NCBI RefSeq assembly: GCF_051058965.1
Contig: NZ_CP183924.1
Direction: 5' to 3' (one strand)
DNA length: 64,000 bases
Origin: Corallococcus exiguus
Lineage (GTDB): Bacteria; Myxococcota; Myxococcia; Myxococcales; Myxococcaceae
In this document: one piece after another, positions 26,730-40,992 of the stretch
Numbering within the stretch: the first letter of the stretch is position 1
Layout: every line of letters starts with the position of its first letter
Notes under the pieces: generated by a model
What the model saw: only the letters and a program-made list of their open reading frames with translations
Databases searched by the model: none
What the model was told of the DNA's origin: nothing
Made by a program: the position numbers and the translations under genes

Positions 26730-26805
26730 GAGCATCCAGCGGGGACAGCGGGACCGCTAGGACGTGTCCGCAAATAGTTCGAGTGGAGCCGGGTGTTAGG
26801 AGGGC

Positions 26806-27264
26806 ATGAGCCGAGGAGAGCTGACGGACGCCCAATGGGAGCGGCTGGCAGGACTGCTGCCGCCCCAGAAACCCGCGCGGGGCCGACCGAACAAGGACCA
26901 CCGCGAAGTGCTCGACGGAATCCTCTGGGTGCTGCGCACCGGAGCGCCCTGGCGCGACGTGCCTCGGGAGCAGTTCGGCAGTTGGAAGACGCTCAGCAGC
27001 CGATTCTACCGCTGGCAGGAGGCAGGCATCTGGGCGCGGGTGCTGCGGCAGTTGCAGGCCGAAGCGCACGAGGATGAGCACCTGGACTGGACGCTGCACT
27101 TCCTGGACGCCAGCGTCATCCGCGCCCACCAGCACGCAGCCGGCGCACGCGGCACGCCGGTAAAAGGGGGGAGGCTGAAGCGCTGGGTCGCAGCCAGGGA
27201 GGCTTCTCGACCAAGCTGCATGTCCGGGCGGAGGGCCAGGGGCGGCCGCTCGTCTTCGAGCTGA
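26806..27264 (+). CDS. IS5-family transposase OrfA (N-terminal part)
   Basis: MSRGELTDAQWERLAGLLPPQKPARGRPNKDHREVLDGILWVLRTGAPWRDVP matches the conserved IS5 N-terminal region. DASVIRAHQHAAGA is also present. Confidence 0.75.
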   Translation: MSRGELTDAQWERLAGLLPPQKPARGRPNKDHREVLDGILWVLRTGAPWRDVPREQFGSWKTLSSRFYRWQEAGIWARVLRQLQAEAHEDEHLDWTLHFLDASVIRAHQHAAGARGTPVKGGRLKRWVAAREASRPSCMSGRRARGGRSSSS

Positions 27265-27626
27265 CGGCAGGCCAACGCCATGAGACGCAGGCCTTCAAGG
27301 CGCTGATGGCGGGTGGCAGCGTGCCGCGCGCGCACTCACCGGGGGCGCCACGCCGCTTGCCCGACGCCCTCGCGGCGGACAAAGGCTACAGCTACCCCAG
27401 CCTCCGCGCCTGGTGCCGCGAACATGGGGTGCACGCCATCATCCCCACTCGCTCGGACCAGCCCCGGCAGCGCACCTTCCGGCGCGCGGCCTACCGCAAA
27501 CGCTGCCGGGTGGAGTGTCTCTTCAATCGCTTGAAGCAGAACCGGCGGGTGGCGACGCGCTATGAGAAGCGCGCCGCCAACTACCTGGCGATGGTCCATA
27601 TCGCCTCCATCCGCCTCTGGCTCTAA
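27171..27626 (+). CDS. IS5-family transposase OrfB segment (in -1 frame relative to orfA; OrfAB fusion expected by frameshifting at aaaagggggg, 27162-27171)
   Basis: The -1 frame reads EAEALGRSQGGFSTKLHVRAEGQGRPLVFELTAGQRHE...DKGYSYPSLRAWCREHGVHAIIPTRSDQ...RYEKRAANYLAMVHIASIRLWL. These are the IS5 DDE C-terminal motifs. The fused product would be about 274 aa. Confidence 0.65.
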   Translation, partial: EAEALGRSQGGFSTKLHVRAEGQGRPLVFELTAGQRHETQAFKALMAGGSVPRAHSPGAPRRLPDALAADKGYSYPSLRAWCREHGVHAIIPTRSDQPRQRTFRRAAYRKRCRVECLFNRLKQNRRVATRYEKRAANYLAMVHIASIRLWL

Positions 27627-27640
27627 TTTGCGGACACGCC

Positions 27641-28525
27641 CTAGGCGGCCAGCTTCTCCCCGCTGCCTTCCACGGGCCTGCCGGAGAGCGCGGCGACCTC
27701 GTGCTCGCTCAGCACGAGCTTCTCTTCAGAGCCGCTCCAGACGAACGGGATGCCCGGCTGGCGGTACAGGTTCGCGGGGATCTCCTGCGCCAGCTGCGCG
27801 TGCAGCTCCGGCAGCTTGGACCAGTGCAGACCGTGCCGCGTGTGATGCGCGGTGTGGTAGCCCAGGTTGCCCGTCATCAGGTTGTAGCCCTTGTGGAGGA
27901 TGTTGTACGAGGCCTCCGAGTGGTTGGCCGTCTCCAGGCCCACGTGGTGGAAGTACGTGGCCCAGGTCGTCACGTAGAGCGACGCCATCATGGGCAAGAG
28001 GAACACGAAGAGCGCGTTGTAGGGGTTCACCCAGAACAGGCCCGCCAGCAGCACCACCTGGAGCGCGGCCATCCACACGAACACGCGCAGCGCCTTGGGG
28101 TGATGCTTCTTCCCCACGTGGAACGCGCGCGAGTACGCGGTCAGCGCCGTGCTCAGCGAGTACTCCACCTCCCCCATCGTCGAGCCGTCATCCCGCTTCC
28201 AGCGCGACTCGTCCTGCGTCTGGTCCAGGTAGTTCTTGTGGTGGCCCAGCACGTGGTGGAGGAACCACGCCTGCGACGTCACGCCCGTCTGGAAGCCGAA
28301 GACGATCTCCAACAGGCGGTTGGGCAGCGCGTGCTTGAAGAAGGACAGGTGCTGGTGGTGGTGATTCCACGAGCAGATCCATCCCTTGGGGATGATGCCC
28401 AGCCCGAACCACAGCACCGGCACCCACCAACTGCGCGCCGTGAGGAACACCGTCAGGTCGAGCGCGAACACGCCAAGGAACATCAGGACCGGGATGCGAT
28501 CTTCAGGGTGCCGGAACAGGGTCAT
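27641..28525 (-). CDS. membrane fatty-acid desaturase / hydroxylase-family protein (three His boxes)
   Basis: His boxes HHHQH, HHVLGHH and HTAHHTRH, with TM segments. The start is MTLFRHPEDRIPVLMF. The stop codon TAG (27641-27643) lies inside the IS target duplication. Confidence 0.75.
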   Translation of the reverse strand: MTLFRHPEDRIPVLMFLGVFALDLTVFLTARSWWVPVLWFGLGIIPKGWICSWNHHHQHLSFFKHALPNRLLEIVFGFQTGVTSQAWFLHHVLGHHKNYLDQTQDESRWKRDDGSTMGEVEYSLSTALTAYSRAFHVGKKHHPKALRVFVWMAALQVVLLAGLFWVNPYNALFVFLLPMMASLYVTTWATYFHHVGLETANHSEASYNILHKGYNLMTGNLGYHTAHHTRHGLHWSKLPELHAQLAQEIPANLYRQPGIPFVWSGSEEKLVLSEHEVAALSGRPVEGSGEKLAA

Positions 28526-29406: not shown

Positions 29407-29488
29407 GCGGCCGCCTGCGTCAAGCGCCAACCCCTTGGAATCCGTGCGTTTTCACACGGAACACTGGCGAATCTCTCCAGGTAGGGTA

Positions 29489-33301: not shown

Positions 33302-34717
33302 ATGCGCATCGCCATCATCGCCACGTACACCCATCCGACCCGGCTGCGAATCAAGGAACCCTCCATCATGCAGTCCTCCGTGCCGGAGCTCATCGCGGGC
33401 CTGTGCCCGGAGCACGCGGAGGTGGAGATCTTCAACGAGAAGGAGGCGGAGCTGCCGTTGGACCGGCACTGGGACCTCGTCTTCTTCTCGTACCTGCACT
33501 CGTACTACGAGCACACCAAGGTCCTCTCCACCCTCTTCCGTCAGCGCGGCATGACGACGGTGGCGGGAGGCCGGCACGCGGGCCACTTCCCCGACGACGC
33601 GGCGAAGTACTTCGACGCGGTCATCACCGGGGAGCCGGAGTCCAACGTGCCCGCGCTCATCGCGGACTTCGAGAAGGGCGAGCTGAAGCCCCGCTACAGC
33701 CTGCCGTCACAGGGCGCCGCCGCCATCCGGCCGTACCGCTACGAGCTCATCGACTTCAAGCACAACAAGGTGCGCCTGCCGGGCATCGAGGCGTCCCGCG
33801 GCTGCCCCTTCACGTGCAACTTCTGCGTGCTCACCGGCCACGAGCGCTACCGCTTCCGTCCCATCCCGGAGGTCATCGACGAAATCCAGACGCGCATGCG
33901 CTGGAACCCGAACTTCCTGGGGCTGATGGGGGACGCGTTCGTCTTCCTGGACAACAACCTGGGCGGCTCGCCCAAGTACCTGCGCGCGCTGTGTGAAGCG
34001 CTCATCCCGTTGAAGAAGACGTGGGGCTGCGCGCTCACCTTCAACGTGCTGAAGGACGACTCGCTGGTGAAGCTGATGGCGAAGGCGGGCTGCCGCTACG
34101 TCTACACCGGCCTGGAGTCGCTCAACCCGGAGTCGCTCAAGGCGATGAACAAGGGCCAGAACAAGCTGTCGGAGGTGGACGCCGTCATCCGCCGCGTCTT
34201 CTCCGCCGGCATCCTGCTGTCCTTCGGGCTCATCGTCGGCTCGGACGGCGACACCAACGAGTACCTGCACCGGCTGCCGGACTACCTGGCGGACCTGAAG
34301 TACTTCTCCGTCACGTTCCTGGGCATCGTGTGCCCGTATCCGGAGACGCCCTTCTTCCGCGAGCTCAAGGCCGAGGACCGGCTGCTGCCCGGCACCACCA
34401 GCCGCGACTACGACGGCTACACGCTGTGCCACCGGCCCAAGCAGATGCACGCGTCGGAGGTGGTGGAGCACTTCCAGCGGCTGTGCCACACGCTGGGCAG
34501 CCTGCCCAACATCGCGCGGCACTACGCGTCCAAGCTGATGATGAGCGACCTGCCCCGCTACAAGCAGACCATCCTCTTCTCCGGGCCGGAGATCGTCAGC
34601 ATCCGCAACCCGGTGAAGAACAAGGAGCGCCGCTACATCGCGGGACTGGACGCCATCGAGGCGTGGGACGCGGAGCGGATGCCCGCGCTGGGCCTCACGC
34701 CGCAGGTCCTGACCTGA
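33302..34717 (+). CDS. B12-binding radical SAM protein (class B rSAM)
   Basis: An N-terminal cobalamin-binding-like Rossmann segment, then the rSAM cluster motif CPFTCNFC (CxxxCxxC). Confidence 0.85.
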   Translation: MRIAIIATYTHPTRLRIKEPSIMQSSVPELIAGLCPEHAEVEIFNEKEAELPLDRHWDLVFFSYLHSYYEHTKVLSTLFRQRGMTTVAGGRHAGHFPDDAAKYFDAVITGEPESNVPALIADFEKGELKPRYSLPSQGAAAIRPYRYELIDFKHNKVRLPGIEASRGCPFTCNFCVLTGHERYRFRPIPEVIDEIQTRMRWNPNFLGLMGDAFVFLDNNLGGSPKYLRALCEALIPLKKTWGCALTFNVLKDDSLVKLMAKAGCRYVYTGLESLNPESLKAMNKGQNKLSEVDAVIRRVFSAGILLSFGLIVGSDGDTNEYLHRLPDYLADLKYFSVTFLGIVCPYPETPFFRELKAEDRLLPGTTSRDYDGYTLCHRPKQMHASEVVEHFQRLCHTLGSLPNIARHYASKLMMSDLPRYKQTILFSGPEIVSIRNPVKNKERRYIAGLDAIEAWDAERMPALGLTPQVLT

Positions 34718-35525
34718 TCCGGGACGGCAGGCGCACGTCCCACGCCAGCCCCAGGACCTGGAGCGCTCGGATGAAGAGCCAACCCGGGTCCCACTGCCAC
34801 CACACCCAACCGTGCCGCGCGGACGCGGGGAAGGCGTGGTGGTTGTTGTGCCAGCCCTCGCCCAGCGCGAGCACGCTCACCCACCACACGTTGCGGCTGT
34901 GGTCGCGCGTGTCGTGGACGCGCTTGCCGAACGCCGCGTGGCACACGGAGTTCACCGCGTAGGTGCTCTGCATCCAGCACACCACGGGCAGGAAGAAGTA
35001 CGCGGGCACCGTGCGCCAGCCGAACGTCAGCCCCACGAAGAGCACCCCCAGCACCTGCGGCGCGATGCGGTAGCGCAAGAGCCAGTGGTAGTAGCCGTCG
35101 TCCGCCATGTCGCGGCACCAGGTGCGCCAGCCGTCCTCTTCCGTGGAGGACTCGTTGAGGATCCACCCCATGTGCGCGTACCAGAAGCCGCGCAGCGGCG
35201 AGTGCACGTCCCCGTCCACGTCCGCCTTCGCGTGGTGCAGCCGGTGGTTCGCGGCCCACAGGAGCGGACTGCCCTGCGCGGTGAGCATGGCCACCGACAC
35301 CAGCGCGTACTCCACCCAGCGGGGGCACGCGAAGGCGCGGTGGCACAGGAGCCGGTGCAGCCCCACCGTCGTGCCCAGACCAATGGACACGTACACGGCC
35401 AGCGCCACCGGCAGCGCGTACGGCGGCCAGGGCAGGAAGAACGCCAGCGCGGCCAGCCCGTGGACCACGAGCATGTAGATGACGATGACGGGACTGAGCT
35501 GGAAGCGGAGCGGCGCGGTGATCAT
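34695..35525 (-). CDS. acyl-CoA (stearoyl-CoA-type) fatty-acid desaturase
   Basis: His boxes HRLLCH, HRLHH and HNNHHAFP, with four TM helices. Its 3' end overlaps the rSAM gene by 23 nt in convergent orientation. Confidence 0.85.
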   Translation of the reverse strand: MITAPLRFQLSPVIVIYMLVVHGLAALAFFLPWPPYALPVALAVYVSIGLGTTVGLHRLLCHRAFACPRWVEYALVSVAMLTAQGSPLLWAANHRLHHAKADVDGDVHSPLRGFWYAHMGWILNESSTEEDGWRTWCRDMADDGYYHWLLRYRIAPQVLGVLFVGLTFGWRTVPAYFFLPVVCWMQSTYAVNSVCHAAFGKRVHDTRDHSRNVWWVSVLALGEGWHNNHHAFPASARHGWVWWQWDPGWLFIRALQVLGLAWDVRLPSRIRSGPAA

Positions 35526-35619: not shown

Positions 35620-38600
35620 TCACGGGACCTTGAGGCCTGGGGAGCAACGAGCGCCTCCACCGGCGGGGCCTGGAGGGTGGGTGGCCTGGAAGCGGTCCAT
35701 GCGGCGCAGCTCCGCGCGGGCCTCCACCTCCGTGAAGATGGCGCGCGCTCGGGCGAGGAAGTCCTCGCGCCGGTTCGGCAGCGCCACCGCCGCGTCGAAG
35801 TAGGCCACGCCCGTCTCCCAGCGGTTGGGGCTCTTCTCCAGGACGGCGATGGCCTCCAGGAACACGGGCTCCGCGGCCTTGGGTCCCTTGCGCAGGGCCA
35901 GCGAGCGCGCTGTCACGCGCAGCGCCGGACCCTTCAGGTACGGATAGAGCCTCGCGATGACGCGCGCCTTGAGGCAGGACAGCCGCACGACCTTCAGCAG
36001 CTTCTTGCGCGGCACCACCGTGGCGCCCTCCTCCAGCGCGAAGAGGGCCGCCTCCGCCGCGTCCACCAGCCCCACCTGGAGGAAGGGCACCAGCACCTGA
36101 TAGCTCCAGATGCTCTCGAAGCATCGCACCGCGACGAGCGCCGCCTCCTCCACCTGGTGCTCGCGCACCGTGACGTTGGCCAGGTGGTTGAGGCTGGCGC
36201 ACTGGTTGGCCAGGTCCGCCACCTCTTCGCTGATGCGCAGGCCCTGCTCCAGCTCCGCGCACAATTCGCCCACGTCACCTTCGCCCAACAGGTAGCGGCA
36301 CATGGGCGCCCACGAGTGCGCCCAGCCCTGGTGCATCAGCGCGTTGAGCTCCACGCCAATGGTCCCCATCTGCTCGTAGAGCGCCACCGCCGTGCGGAAG
36401 CGCGAGTGGAGGAACTCGCCCGTGGCCTGCATCATCAGCGACGTCTGGCGCTCCCAGCGCTCGCCCACCTGGCGCAGCGTGGAGACGGCCTCCTCCTGGA
36501 ATTCGCGCGCTCGCTCCAGCTCGTTGGCGAAGAAGGCCTGGATGCCCAGGCGGCTGAGCGCGAGCCCCTCCGCCACCGGGTCCTTGGAGCGGCGCGCGTA
36601 CTCCAGCGCCTTCTCACAGTGGTAGCGCGAGCGCTTGAGCAGCCCCGCTCCGAACAAGAGCGTGCCGTAGTAACCGCGCGCCATGCTCATGGCGTAGTCG
36701 TTGCGCGAGCGCTCCGCCATGTTGGTGGACACCAGCGTCGCCCAGGTGAGCTTGGTGATGTCCGCGAAGTAGTAGATGCGGATGAGAGAGTTGAGCGTGG
36801 ACAGCTGCTGCAGGTAGTTGCCCAGCCTCGCCGCCGGCAGCGGACGCAAGATGAAGGGCAGCAGCGTCGCGAGCCCCCGGAGCACCAGGTTCGCCAGCGT
36901 GCGCAGGCCCAGCGCGGCCAGGCTCCCGGGGAGGCTGCGGCCCCTCAGCACCAGCGACTTCTCCAGGTGCTGCGTGGCGAGCGCGGACTCGCCCTTCTCC
37001 TGGTGCGCGCGGCCCAGGCCCAGGTGCAGCTCCGCCTGGCGAGGGGGCTCCTCCTCGTCCACCAGGCACTGCTCGAACATCAGGATGGCGTTGGCGTAGT
37101 GGCCTGCCTGGAGCAGCGTCTCCGCCAGCTCCTGCATCACCCGGCGCGTCTGGAGCAGCGTCACCTCCGGGTCCACCGGAACGACGGTGCCCAGCAGCTC
37201 CAGGCCCCGGTTGTAGTGGTAGAGCGCGTCGTCGTTCGCGTATTGCGCCCGCGCGCTGCGGGCCGCCATCAGCGTGTACGCCAGGCCCTTGTCCTCCACG
37301 TTGCCCGCGAGGAAGTGGAACGCGAGCAGACCCGCGGAGGCCGCGAGGTTGTCGTTGGCGCGGGCCTCCAGGTAGCGCGCGAGCCGGCGGTGCAGGTCCT
37401 CACGCGCGGACACCAGCAGCGTGTTGTAGGCCACGTCGCGGATGACGATGTGCTTGAAGAGGCAGGTGTACGGCTCCTCCGTCTCCAGCAGGATGAGGCC
37501 CAGGCGCTGGAGCGTGTCCATGGCCTCGCGCAGCACGCCGTGGCCCAGGGTGGGCACCAGCGCCGCCACCGCGTCCAGCGTGAAGATGCGCCCGATGACG
37601 GACGCCACCTTCACCACCAGCTTCTCCGTCTCGCTGAGCAGGTCGATGCGCGACAGCACCACGTCCTGGATGGAGTCCGGCAGCAGCAGGTCCTGGAGGC
37701 CGCGCTTCAGCTCCATCCGCTGCGATCCGGGCTCCACCGGTCCCAGGTAGCCCTGCTCCGCCAGGCCCTCCACGATGGATTCGATGAAGAACGGGTTGCC
37801 CTGCACCTTCGCGAGTAGCCGGTCCTCCAGCGCGACGTCCGGCGGCGACAGGCGCAGGTGCAAGCGCAGGAGCGCCCGCGTGTCCTCTTCGTCCAGGCTC
37901 GTCAGGTCCACCGGGACGAACTCCGGCAGGTCGCGCAGCCCGCGGAGCTGGTCGCCCGGGCGCATCGTCGCCAGCACCATGATGCGGTGCGAGCCCACGC
38001 GCACCGCCAGGTACTGGAGCAGATCCAACGAGATGTAGTCCGCCCAGTGCAGGTCCTCGAAGAAGAGCAGCAGCGGCTGCGCGCGGCTGAGCTTTTCCAG
38101 GAGCTGGAAGACGATCTGGAACACCTTCTGCTGCTTGCGCCGCGCGTCCATCCCCGCCGTGGCGGACGTCTCCTCCAGCGACATGCCGAGGATGCCCGCG
38201 ACCACGGGAATCCACTCCGGCCCCACGTCCTCCAGGCCGTCCAGCCCCTGCCGCAGGCGCGTGAGCTGCGCCTCGGTGTCGTCCGAGTCGTGCAGACCGA
38301 AGGCCTGGAGCAGCACCTCCTTCCAGGGGAAGAAGGGGGTGAAGGCTTCGTAGGAGTAGCAGACGCCGTACAGCGCCCGGGCGCCGCCCTCCTCCGCGTC
38401 CTCCAGCACGCGCGCGCCCAGCCGCGACTTGCCGATGCCCGCCTCGCCGGACACCACGCTCACGCGGCCCTGGCCGGCGAAGGCCGCGTTGAGCGACGCG
38501 TGCAGCACGTTGAGCTCGCGGCTGCGGCCGATGATGTCGCCCCGGCCCTTGATGAAGAGGCTGCGGCGCGTCTCCCCCAAGAGCCGGTATACCGGCACCG

Positions 38601-39237
38601 AACGCGAGACGCCCTTGAGCTTCGCGTCCTCCACGAACTCCGTGGCGAAGCCGCCCTGCTGCGAGCGCGCCTGGGTGTTGGCGCACAGGTGCACGCCGTC
38701 CTGGTGTCCGCCGTGCGTCATCAGGCGCGCGGCCATGTTCACGACCTCGCCCAGCGCCGAGTAGCCCTTGCGCGTGGGCGAGCCCATGTCCCCGCAGTAG
38801 GCGTGGCCGGTGGCGATGCCGATCTGCAGCTCATCCAGGAAGGGGAACTGCGCCCGGGCCTTGAGCAGCTTGCAGGCCAGCCGGCACGCCAGCACCTCCT
38901 TGTTCTGCTGGGCGGTGGGCGCGCCGAACAGGACGTAGAGCACGTTGCCCTTGTCCGTGAAGTCCGTCATCAGCAACACGCCGCCGTGGTGGGCGGACTC
39001 GCGCTGGACGTATTCGTAGTAGGCGTTGAGGTCGTGGGTGAACGCGTCCGGATCCGTGTCCGCCCGCGCGTGGGTGAAGCGCACGAAGAAGCAGGTGACG
39101 TCGCGGAAGTCGCCCGCGAACTCCTGGTGCGCGGTGGTGATCTTCGTGAAGAGCACCGGGTGCAGGAGCAGCGCGCACCGGCCCACCAGCTCCGCCCCAC
39201 CCGTGGGCGCGGGCAGCGGGCGCTTCACCGACTCCAC
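35620..39237 (-). CDS. adenylate/guanylate cyclase (CHD) domain - P-loop NTPase - TPR signalling protein (downstream portion of a frame-disrupted two-CHD gene)
   Basis: A CHD domain (FAGDFRDVTCFFVRFT...HGGVLLMTDFTDKGNVLYVLFGAP...GEVVNMAARL), a Walker A motif GEAGIGKSRL, and a long TPR/helical C-terminus. The ORF opens with GTG at 39237. Confidence 0.7.
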   Translation of the reverse strand: MESVKRPLPAPTGGAELVGRCALLLHPVLFTKITTAHQEFAGDFRDVTCFFVRFTHARADTDPDAFTHDLNAYYEYVQRESAHHGGVLLMTDFTDKGNVLYVLFGAPTAQQNKEVLACRLACKLLKARAQFPFLDELQIGIATGHAYCGDMGSPTRKGYSALGEVVNMAARLMTHGGHQDGVHLCANTQARSQQGGFATEFVEDAKLKGVSRSVPVYRLLGETRRSLFIKGRGDIIGRSRELNVLHASLNAAFAGQGRVSVVSGEAGIGKSRLGARVLEDAEEGGARALYGVCYSYEAFTPFFPWKEVLLQAFGLHDSDDTEAQLTRLRQGLDGLEDVGPEWIPVVAGILGMSLEETSATAGMDARRKQQKVFQIVFQLLEKLSRAQPLLLFFEDLHWADYISLDLLQYLAVRVGSHRIMVLATMRPGDQLRGLRDLPEFVPVDLTSLDEEDTRALLRLHLRLSPPDVALEDRLLAKVQGNPFFIESIVEGLAEQGYLGPVEPGSQRMELKRGLQDLLLPDSIQDVVLSRIDLLSETEKLVVKVASVIGRIFTLDAVAALVPTLGHGVLREAMDTLQRLGLILLETEEPYTCLFKHIVIRDVAYNTLLVSAREDLHRRLARYLEARANDNLAASAGLLAFHFLAGNVEDKGLAYTLMAARSARAQYANDDALYHYNRGLELLGTVVPVDPEVTLLQTRRVMQELAETLLQAGHYANAILMFEQCLVDEEEPPRQAELHLGLGRAHQEKGESALATQHLEKSLVLRGRSLPGSLAALGLRTLANLVLRGLATLLPFILRPLPAARLGNYLQQLSTLNSLIRIYYFADITKLTWATLVSTNMAERSRNDYAMSMARGYYGTLLFGAGLLKRSRYHCEKALEYARRSKDPVAEGLALSRLGIQAFFANELERAREFQEEAVSTLRQVGERWERQTSLMMQATGEFLHSRFRTAVALYEQMGTIGVELNALMHQGWAHSWAPMCRYLLGEGDVGELCAELEQGLRISEEVADLANQCASLNHLANVTVREHQVEEAALVAVRCFESIWSYQVLVPFLQVGLVDAAEAALFALEEGATVVPRKKLLKVVRLSCLKARVIARLYPYLKGPALRVTARSLALRKGPKAAEPVFLEAIAVLEKSPNRWETGVAYFDAAVALPNRREDFLARARAIFTEVEARAELRRMDRFQATHPPGPAGGGARCSPGLKVP

Positions 39238-39337
39238 CGGCGCGTCGAGCGCCAGCCGGTGGTTGCCGCCCTCGCGTGGATCGCCCCTGCGCGCGGACTC
39301 CGGCAGCGCCGCCCAGGCGCGCGGGCTGAGGACGATC

Positions 39338-39907
39338 CGACACCGTGGCCTGCTTCTCCGCGCCCACCGCCTGCGCCAGCGGCTCTCCCACGAGCGCCGG
39401 GTGCATCCACAGGCCGGTGGTGCCCATCACGATGCGGGTGGCCTCACCAAAGCCGATGCCGATGCGCGACGACACGCCGAAGCGCTGGCCCAACAGCTCC
39501 AGCCGGGCGAAGCGCGCGAGCCTGCGCTGCACGCCCAGCGCGCACACCGCCGCTCGCTGCACGACGTCCGCGTCCGCTTCCTCGGGCGCGGACTCGAAGC
39601 ACGCGAGGATGGAGTCGCCGGCGAACTGGTAGATGTCCCCGCCGTGGTCGCGGACGACGTCGATCATCTCCGTGTAGTAGTTCGTCAGCAGGCGCTGGAG
39701 CGCGTCGATGCCGCGAGGGCCCGCGCCGCTCAGCCCCACCACGATGGGCGTGAAGCCCGCGATGTCCAGCAGCAGGATGGCGCCCCGCACGCCCTCCACC
39801 CGGGGCAGCGCGTCCGCATCCTGGCTCCCAAGCCGCGCGAGGATGGCCGCCGGCATGTACGGGGCCAGCATCGCGACAGCGGGATCAATGGGCTGCGTGG
39901 AGGGCAT
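39338..39907 (-). CDS. N-terminal CHD (class III cyclase) segment, frame-disrupted relative to the downstream ORF
   Basis: ILLLDIAGFTP...HGGDIYQFAGDSILACF...IGIGFGEATRIVMG is a complete cyclase homology domain. The track ORF continues to 38831, but past about 39335 its GC3 drops and the residues become Gly/Ala/Arg junk. The +1 frame, that of the downstream ORF, becomes coding there. Confidence 0.55.
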
Positions 39908-39925: not shown

Positions 39926-40327
39926 TCAGGACAGGTTGGCGAAGCGCAGGTACAGGGCGCCCAGGCACATGGCGCCGTAGAGGGGGATTTCCGCCGTCTC
40001 CGGCCAGGGCTGCTGCTTGCGCACCGCGCCCCAGACGTGCACCGCCGTCATCAGTCCACCGATGAGGCCGATGAGCTCGAAGATGACCAGGTGGCTCTTG
40101 GGGTCCGGGATGAACTGCACCACCGCGATGATGACGGACAGCGCCAGGCCGCCCAGGCAACGCGCGAAGTAGACCGTCAAGTCGTTGTTGCCCGTGGGCA
40201 GCTCCCACCCGAACCAACGCGCCCAACGCAGCGGGATGAACAGCAACGGCAACGCGTAGACGACCAGGAAGACCGAGGTGGAGACCGCGAGGAACCAGCT
40301 GGCCAACGGATAGTCGGGGTTGATCAT
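39926..40327 (-). CDS. small integral membrane protein (4 TM), unknown function
   Basis: 133 aa from MINPDYPLASWFLAVSTSVFLVVYALPLLF. The track ORF extends to 40372. Confidence 0.5.
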   Translation of the reverse strand: MINPDYPLASWFLAVSTSVFLVVYALPLLFIPLRWARWFGWELPTGNNDLTVYFARCLGGLALSVIIAVVQFIPDPKSHLVIFELIGLIGGLMTAVHVWGAVRKQQPWPETAEIPLYGAMCLGALYLRFANLS

Positions 40328-40461
40328 GATGGCGGACGTGATGGGTGACGGACGTGCACGCGCGGTGCACACCCCTCCCCACGACGTCCATCCTAGAATC
40401 TTTTGCCACCCCGTGGGGCGGCTTCCCCTTCACCAAGGCCCTGCTTGAGCCCGCCTGCCGC

Positions 40462-40992
40462 CTAGCGGGTGGCGGCCAGGAGGAACTCGGCCACCCGCTC
40501 CAGGGAGGTGGTGCGCTCGGCCTCCACCGGGAAGCGCCGGAACAGCTCCGGTGGCCCGTGCAGGATGAGCGGCTTGCCATAGCGCAAGGCCAGGACGGCC
40601 TCCGCCGCGGTGCCGGCGCCCCCGGGCAGCGCGACCAGGGCATGCGGCGTCAGCACGTTGATGTGGTTGCGGCTCATGGGGTCCGTGCCCTGCTCCCCGC
40701 TGAGCGGCAGGTGGGTGTAGATGGGGATTTCGATGTCCGTGTTCGGGTAGCCGGCCCGGGGCTGGTAACGGCCGTCCGCGCCCACGGTGCCGGGGATGAT
40801 GCCGATGGCCGCCCCCCGCCGCCCCTCCACCTGGACGAAGGCCCCCGCCGCCACGCTCATGACGCCGCCACCCGCGCCGGTGAGCAGGTCGAACCCGGCC
40901 TCCGCAATCCACCGCGCCAGGGGGACGACCCACTCGTCGTGGGAGTGCGCCCCGGAGCCGAACACTCCGATGATGCGGCGGTGTCTGCGCAT
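40462..40992 (-). CDS. TIGR00725-family / LOG-like (SLOG superfamily) Rossmann-fold protein
   Basis: IGVFGSGA...PGG...GTAAE is the LOG/SLOG pattern. 176 aa. Confidence 0.7.
   Translation of the reverse strand: MRRHRRIIGVFGSGAHSHDEWVVPLARWIAEAGFDLLTGAGGGVMSVAAGAFVQVEGRRGAAIGIIPGTVGADGRYQPRAGYPNTDIEIPIYTHLPLSGEQGTDPMSRNHINVLTPHALVALPGGAGTAAEAVLALRYGKPLILHGPPELFRRFPVEAERTTSLERVAEFLLAATR

Follow-up and report, generated by a model that had tools for sequence, protein, structure and literature searches.

The window analysed here, a 64 kb stretch of the genome of Corallococcus exiguus (contig NZ_CP183924.1 of assembly GCF_051058965.1) with 70% G+C, carries a nucleotide cyclase gene (35620..39907, minus strand) whose reading frame is interrupted. 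By descent the gene is an orthologue of the intact cyclase/AAA/TPR proteins of 1428–1433 aa from Corallococcus. As sequenced, it is spread over two open reading frames (ORFs), an upstream one of 358 aa (38831..39907) and a downstream one of 1205 aa (35620..39237), the latter lying in the +1 frame relative to the former; these ORFs and all parts of the gene described below are on the minus strand. With so high a G+C content, coding frames stand out sharply by their GC fraction at third codon positions (GC3). In the upstream frame, values of 0.87–1.00 from 39907 to ~39,400 give way to 0.3–0.6. In the +1 frame GC3 reaches 0.93–1.00 from ~39,340 and is held at that level through the whole 1205-aa ORF, that is, the codon bias changes frame at ~39,340–39,400. 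The third positions of codons 1–190 (39338..39907), which encode an N-terminal helical segment and most of the first cyclase homology domain (CHD1, C1-like) in the original frame, are A/T in 5.8% of cases, versus 54% in the 169 Gly/Ala/Arg/Pro-rich codons that follow up to the stop codon (38831..39337). This tail, which contains the Gly/Ala/Arg-rich stretch SDRPQPARLGGAAGVR and overlaps the true frame, is non-native protein, as judged from its GC3 of 0.3–0.6 and its share of third-position A/T. Upstream of the GTG codon at 39237, no stop interrupts the +1 frame as far as 39426, and it reads IVLSPRAWAALPESARRGDPREGGNHRLALDAPVESVKRP there. A previous sequence-only reading of the window had described the fall of GC3 in the upstream frame, its climb in the +1 frame and the uninterrupted run of the latter into the 1205-aa ORF, and all of this was borne out.

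To the base, the lesion was located by a DNA alignment with the related genome stretch L001 and the conspecific stretches L042–L048. The window lacks two bases, GG, between 39336 and 39335, within the interval of 39,330–39,345 that the sequence-only reading had indicated; the single-base insertion or deletion proposed there, however, has to be replaced by a 2-bp deletion. At this site (39335..39336) the window has TCGGA^TCGTC, with TCGGATCGTC being the minus strand across the deletion, as opposed to TCGGAGGTCGTC in the relatives. The two lost bases would have ended codon E191 and begun codon V192, and their absence has the same net effect on the frame as a 1-bp insertion. As a consequence, the 3′ part of CHD1 (residues 192 to ~219, 39253..39335) is now found in the +1 frame. 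When GG is inserted after 39336, an ORF of 4290 nt and 1429 codons without internal stop is restored, which differs from L042 by 24 synonymous and 2 nonsynonymous codons and by one in-frame 3-nt indel in the C-terminal tail. A tblastn search with the junction region, whose peptide in the full-length protein is QATVSEVVLSPR, revealed a continuous frame in all 46 related stretches, out of 48 fetched, whose sequence crosses the junction. These 46 relatives also keep the motif [S/G]-E-V-x-L-S at this point, and the window is the sole split sequence, with frames −1 and −2 meeting at 39335/39336.

The same picture emerges at the protein level. Single Myxococcaceae proteins of 1413–1442 aa cover 98–99% of the conceptually joined protein, with identities of 96% in Corallococcus, 70% in Pyxidicoccus, 69% in Myxococcus xanthus, 61% in Hyalangium and 59% in Stigmatella (hybrida); the identity to the protein of Leptospira santarosai is 34%. 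In the 90% cluster, the joined translation is 99.6% identical to P0122 (C. exiguus, 1428 aa, from three assemblies) and 98.8% identical to P0121 (1433 aa, from four assemblies). The gene is intact in seven conspecific C. exiguus assemblies with DNA identities of 98.3–99.2%, and the window as a whole shares 99.25% DNA identity and the same gene order over 22 kb with C. exiguus DSM 14696 (GCA_009909105.1). The two ORFs are pieces of one gene, as the similarity is far beyond chance. The proposal of a single gene for two CHDs, an NTPase and a TPR domain that was split by a frameshift is supported, and the two-gene arrangement that the sequence-only reading had set against it as a test, with an equivalent boundary in orthologues, was found in none of them.

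Two side observations on the orthologues deserve mention. At the C-terminal tail (~35680..35690), strains differ by indels of 3 and 4 nt within a CCAC/CCACC repeat, which is why the last 15–20 residues of the cyclase occur in two unrelated versions, THPPGPAGGGARCSPGLKVP in the 1428-aa form and LQAPPPEVLVPPQAARAHDARVM in the 1433-aa form. The extreme C-terminus tolerates frameshifts, in contrast to the C1 site. Furthermore, two database records look mislabelled or contaminated: L017, titled 'Comamonas sp. KCTC 72670', has a Myxococcus-type copy of the gene (72% identity) together with its upstream neighbours, and L024, titled 'Corallococcus terminator BB12-2', has the junction peptide of Myxococcus eversor (L022) and differs from C. 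terminator CA054A (L010).

Both cyclase homology domains of the gene become apparent after frame correction. Whereas the 358-aa upstream ORF alone gave no Pfam match at E ≤ 0.01, the joined N-terminus contains two Guanylate_cyc stretches. In the 1205-aa ORF, Pfam detected Guanylate_cyc at residues 46–214, AAA_16 at residues 236–421 and several TPR models, in agreement with the second CHD, the Walker A motif GEAGIGKS and the TPR domain named in the sequence-only reading, albeit with TPR below cut-off. NCBIfam returned nothing above cut-off (TOMM_kin_cyc, 221 bits versus a cut-off of 706). The second cyclase homology domain (CHD2, C2-like, 38572..39111) matches Guanylate_cyc with E = 2e-9. For both cyclase domains, human soluble adenylyl cyclase (sAC, ADCY10) is the top relative in the PDB, C1 matching C1 (joined residues 14–202 to 17–198, E = 3.5e-11) and C2 matching C2 (262–449 to 283–468, E ~2e-11). 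For the first 475 residues of P0001, an intact orthologue, an AlphaFold2 model was computed from an alignment of 18 sequences (pLDDT 86, pTM 0.83). In a comparison of this model with the PDB, the 24 top matches are all catalytic cores of human sAC (TM 0.75–0.82, E down to 1.6e-29), followed by C1–C2 modules of membrane cyclases. The catalytic residues are divided between the two domains. C1 has the two metal-binding aspartates, D48 in LLLDIAGFT (39749..39775) and D98 in QFAGDSI (39608..39628), and lacks the Asn/Arg pair. C2 lacks the aspartate pair (VTCFFVRF at 39076..39099) and keeps K320 (DKGNV, within 38932..38955) as well as N391 and R395 (GEVVNMAARL, 38722..38751). D48, D98, K320, N391 and R395 are invariant in alignments of 18–25 orthologues.

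Downstream of the cyclase domains, a STAND-type P-loop NTPase (37975..38532) is recognised by AAA_16 (E = 1.8e-23, 84 bits versus a cut-off of 32.6), with Walker A at 38425..38448 and a Walker B-like sequence, LLLFFEDLHWAD, at 38038..38073. The C-terminal helical-repeat region (35620..37140, including the stop codon) is TPR-like: TPR_12, TPR_2, TPR_7 and TPR_1 match residues 700–922 of the 1205-aa ORF, all below the curated Pfam cut-offs (TPR_12, 26.4 versus 30.1), PDB matches comprise consensus TPR proteins and the TPR protein G-protein-signaling modulator 2, and the orthologues colinear with this region of ~500 residues carry a TPR annotation. Searching the PDB with the ATPase–TPR part returned TPR proteins alone and no solved STAND relative.

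From this architecture, the intact protein of ~1429 aa would be a class III nucleotide cyclase of the soluble, sAC-like type that carries a STAND-type ATPase and TPR-like repeats in the same chain. CHD1 and CHD2 are predicted to fold against each other and to form one intramolecular active site, to which C1 would supply the two metal-binding aspartates and C2 the substrate lysine and the transition-state asparagine and arginine. By analogy with STAND proteins, the ATPase/TPR part is presumably a regulatory or sensing part, and it may gate the cyclase core in response to a ligand or partner. With the deletion, translation would proceed after codon 190 into the nonsense tail of 169 codons; the last strands and helix of C1 would be lost and C1 would be uncoupled from C2 and the ATPase and TPR region, giving a loss-of-function allele.

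The break falls within C1, behind residue 190. According to the model, residues 191–219 form the last four secondary-structure elements of C1 (a strand at 191–194, a helix at 196–201 and strands at 209–211 and 217–219) and complete its fold, and the alignment with C1 of sAC crosses the break without interruption (SEVVLSPRAW versus NDVILSPNCW). Contrary to what the sequence-only reading had assumed, the first ~190 residues are therefore not a complete CHD, since the domain runs ~30 residues past the break; the 358-aa product would be an incomplete domain, a truncated C1 followed by the 169-residue nonsense tail. A second assumption of that reading, that CHD2, NTPase and TPR could still be made from the GTG at 39237, is likewise unsupported. 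This codon (39235..39237) is the first possible start in the +1 frame and thus a hypothetical restart. By inspection, no purine-rich motif resembling a Shine-Dalgarno sequence is present in the 13 bases 5′ of it (gctcgacgcgccg), and a promoter/terminator scan found no sigma-70-like promoter near it, which is weak evidence because myxobacterial promoters differ. Coupling of termination and reinitiation is impossible, as the stop codon of the upstream ORF lies 400 nt past the GTG. Moreover, judging from its residues, a product starting there (linker, C2, ATPase and TPR) would by itself be unable to act as a cyclase, because both metal-binding aspartates are located only in CHD1. The division of labour between C1 and C2 implies that the break inactivates the enzyme and does not merely split it. 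Taken as sequenced, the locus is null with respect to cyclase activity, and presumably no active product is made. In addition, ~3.2 kb of untranslated mRNA could lower the expression of the fatty-acid desaturase gene (34695..35525) that follows on the same strand, 95 nt downstream of the cyclase gene.

The sequence-only reading had left two origins for the break, a real pseudogenising mutation or a sequencing or assembly indel. This dichotomy is sound: unless it is an artefact, the deletion must be very recent. On balance we lean towards a real mutation, a very recent and strain-specific loss of 2 bp in one conserved cyclase gene, as the remainder of the gene gives every appearance of being under selection. 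Given the 24 synonymous versus 2 nonsynonymous codons and the lack of an internal stop, purifying selection has acted until essentially the present. Assembly error is the only live alternative. It would mean that the strain carries TCGGAGGTCGTC and an intact gene of 1429 codons and that the consensus dropped two bases, which we regard as quite possible without favouring it. In genomes of 70% GC, 'frameshifted' annotations commonly stem from isolated indels in the consensus, yet the typical error of long-read or 454 data is a 1-bp change in a homopolymer, unlike the loss of 2 bp seen here, where the deleted GG stands in a GGAGG context outside any long homopolymer. Nor does the assembly appear indel-prone. 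We scanned the whole 64 kb for frames with GC3 ≥ 0.85 and GC1 > GC2 (the latter was added since antisense shadow frames also have high GC3) and found a stop codon at every same-strand frame change except the site 39335/39336. Direct comparison with L042 over 22 kb revealed, besides this deletion, two in-frame indels of 21 bp and 3 bp and one intergenic indel of 1 bp, so that the deletion is the sole frame-breaking indel in both data sets. Several points weigh against a real mutation nonetheless. The deletion allele occurs neither in the 48 genome stretches fetched nor in the Joint Genome Institute (JGI) metagenome contigs scanned, and exact look-ups of the two ORF products found no entry in the protein collection. 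The flawless state of the GG-restored gene, with its ratio of 24:2 against the nearest strain, fits an isolated assembly or consensus error equally well.

The other differences from conspecific strains comprise indels and a larger insertion. Relative to L042, 21 bp are missing at ~48680 (minus strand) in the N-terminal region of a TonB-dependent receptor gene, within the short direct repeat CCACGCCGGG; this change appears to be an in-frame length polymorphism. The 1-nt indel at 29428 relative to L042–L044 (GGTTGGCG against GGTT-GCG) lies in non-coding DNA between a PhoU_div gene and a haem-oxygenase-like gene and is the sole other indel in the 22 kb that is not a multiple of 3. A segment of ~880 bp (26762..27640) is absent from the conspecific L042 and L043. 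It contains two ORFs, 26806..27264 (DUF4096, E = 5e-31) and 27306..27626 (DDE_Tnp_1_2/DDE_Tnp_1), that is, a transposase of the IS5 family in two frames, as is usual for that group of insertion sequences (IS), and it is bounded by inverted repeats of ~19–29 nt (26747–26775 and 27626–27654). The segment is a strain-specific IS5-family insertion directly after the stop codon of a fatty-acid desaturase gene. This private insertion, 12 kb away from the cyclase gene, marks the strain as a separate lineage that has recently undergone changes of its own, a point in favour of a real deletion.

A further scenario would preserve function despite the broken frame, either because a CHD1 fragment and a CHD2–ATPase–TPR protein reassemble or because ribosomes perform a programmed +1/−2 frameshift. 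In its favour, ribosomes shifting at any point in the vicinity would meet no stop, since the +1 frame is already open at 39426, and a GTG is available at 39237 upstream of CHD2. However, none of the 46 junction-spanning relatives has such a shift and none of them needs recoding. Inspection of the site (GTGTCGGATCGTCC) disclosed no slippery heptamer, no stop-stimulated +1 motif and no A/T slippage run, and no repeat tract or phase-variation motif is found at the deletion either. As for reassembly, the lack of a Shine-Dalgarno sequence before the GTG and the impossibility of reinitiation coupling argue against synthesis of the second part, and the CHD1 fragment would be devoid of its last four structural elements. 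We consider a functional split or recoding highly improbable; as the split recurs in none of the relatives and a shift motif is missing from the site, both a programmed frameshift and a true two-gene arrangement were rejected, as far as comparison allows. For annotation, the locus should be entered as a single frameshifted pseudogene, or corrected to one gene if reads disagree, rather than as two genes.

The cyclase gene has two regular neighbours upstream, a gene for a small predicted membrane protein directly adjacent (39926..40372, minus strand; ~133–148 aa across relatives) and a SLOG/LDcluster4 gene (40462..40992, minus strand; PF18306, E = 2.4e-23). The order SLOG, membrane protein and sAC-like cyclase on one strand was observed in most of the Myxococcaceae-type stretches examined, and where the upstream flank sufficed, the trio is kept in Corallococcus, Myxococcus, Pyxidicoccus, Citreicoccus, Hyalangium and related loci from metagenome-assembled genomes. 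The exceptions are L023 and L041, which have a SLOG match only, and the Spirochaetia locus L038, which has neither neighbour. We also examined a role in anti-phage defence of the Pycsar type. PADLOC gave only weak, domain-level PycC matches for the cyclase (E = 1e-10, 39 bits) and no match for the SLOG and the small membrane protein. As the neighbouring genes have no PADLOC match and the locus occupies a conserved core chromosomal position across the family, we rejected this idea.

The conserved arrangement suggests a functional module of the three genes, in which, for example, one product makes a nucleotide and another binds it. One may go further and speculate that the trio constitutes a dedicated nucleotide second-messenger circuit, in which the STAND/TPR part senses, C1–C2 makes a cyclic nucleotide and SLOG binds or processes it, acting together with the membrane protein, and that a real deletion has turned this strain into a natural knockout; we hold this combined proposal to be rather unlikely. 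If it were true, the frameshift strain would be a ready-made tool to study the phenotype of the trio. More generally, a verified natural null allele would allow a clean comparison with the seven near-identical intact strains with respect to cyclic AMP and cyclic GMP levels, predation and development. Taken alone, the frameshift is of little importance, since such lesions are routinely met in conserved genes of single strains, and the conserved trio may be worth more than the frameshift. What lends the gene additional interest is that it is a bacterial counterpart of mammalian sAC with the full layout of C1, C2, STAND domain and TPR-like repeats, since the function of the C-terminal part is still unknown even in mammalian sAC (PMC12802110).

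Compared with known cases, the lesion at 39335/39336 resembles ordinary frameshift pseudogenes and annotation artefacts in that a small strain-specific indel in a selected gene is followed by a tail of atypical codon usage, and nothing distinctive sets it apart. The gene family is already known, and the frameshift, or consensus error, is ordinary, recent and strain-specific. Among class III cyclases, those of the Mycobacterium tuberculosis Rv0386 type likewise combine a cyclase domain with an AAA_16/STAND ATPase and helical repeats. Rv0386 itself has a single CHD, must homodimerise and ends in a LuxR-type helix-turn-helix (HTH). In contrast, the product of the gene in the window unites two differentiated CHDs in a single chain, and no HTH was detected in it by Pfam.

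Human sAC is the top sequence and fold match for both catalytic domains and has the same division of catalytic residues, which is found in mammalian membrane cyclases as well; the identity of the core, however, is only ~20%. Activation by bicarbonate is unlikely, as predicted from the alignment: at the positions of Lys95 and Arg176, which form the bicarbonate site in sAC structures, the cyclase of the window has Gln94 (invariant) and Val181. Full-length mammalian sAC consists of C1–C2 and a predicted STAND domain with P-loop, the regulatory role of which is unknown (PMC12802110), and in terms of architecture this C-terminal extension may be regarded as analogous to the STAND/TPR part of the window gene.

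The closest precedent is the family of soluble tandem-CHD cyclases described by Lehmann et al. 2013 (PMC3789758) for LA_4008 of Leptospira interrogans, for which the authors named the orthologues MXAN_4545, COCOR_04748 and STAUR_4866 and noted a resemblance to Rv0386. A literature search retrieved no functional study of the myxobacterial orthologues beyond this work. The likeness comprises the two tandem N-terminal CHDs and the AAA_16 domain directly after them; the C-terminus has TPR matches below cut-off, and the repaired protein is colinear over 98–99% of its length with Myxococcus, Stigmatella and Leptospira proteins of 1400–1440 aa. A role in elevating cyclic AMP in host cells, as proposed for LA_4008, finds no support in a soil predator that carries the gene at a conserved chromosomal locus. 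The gene of the window differs from all these relatives in its frame, which is interrupted by the 2-bp deletion; it is a member of the LA_4008 family by descent and, as sequenced, a pseudogene.

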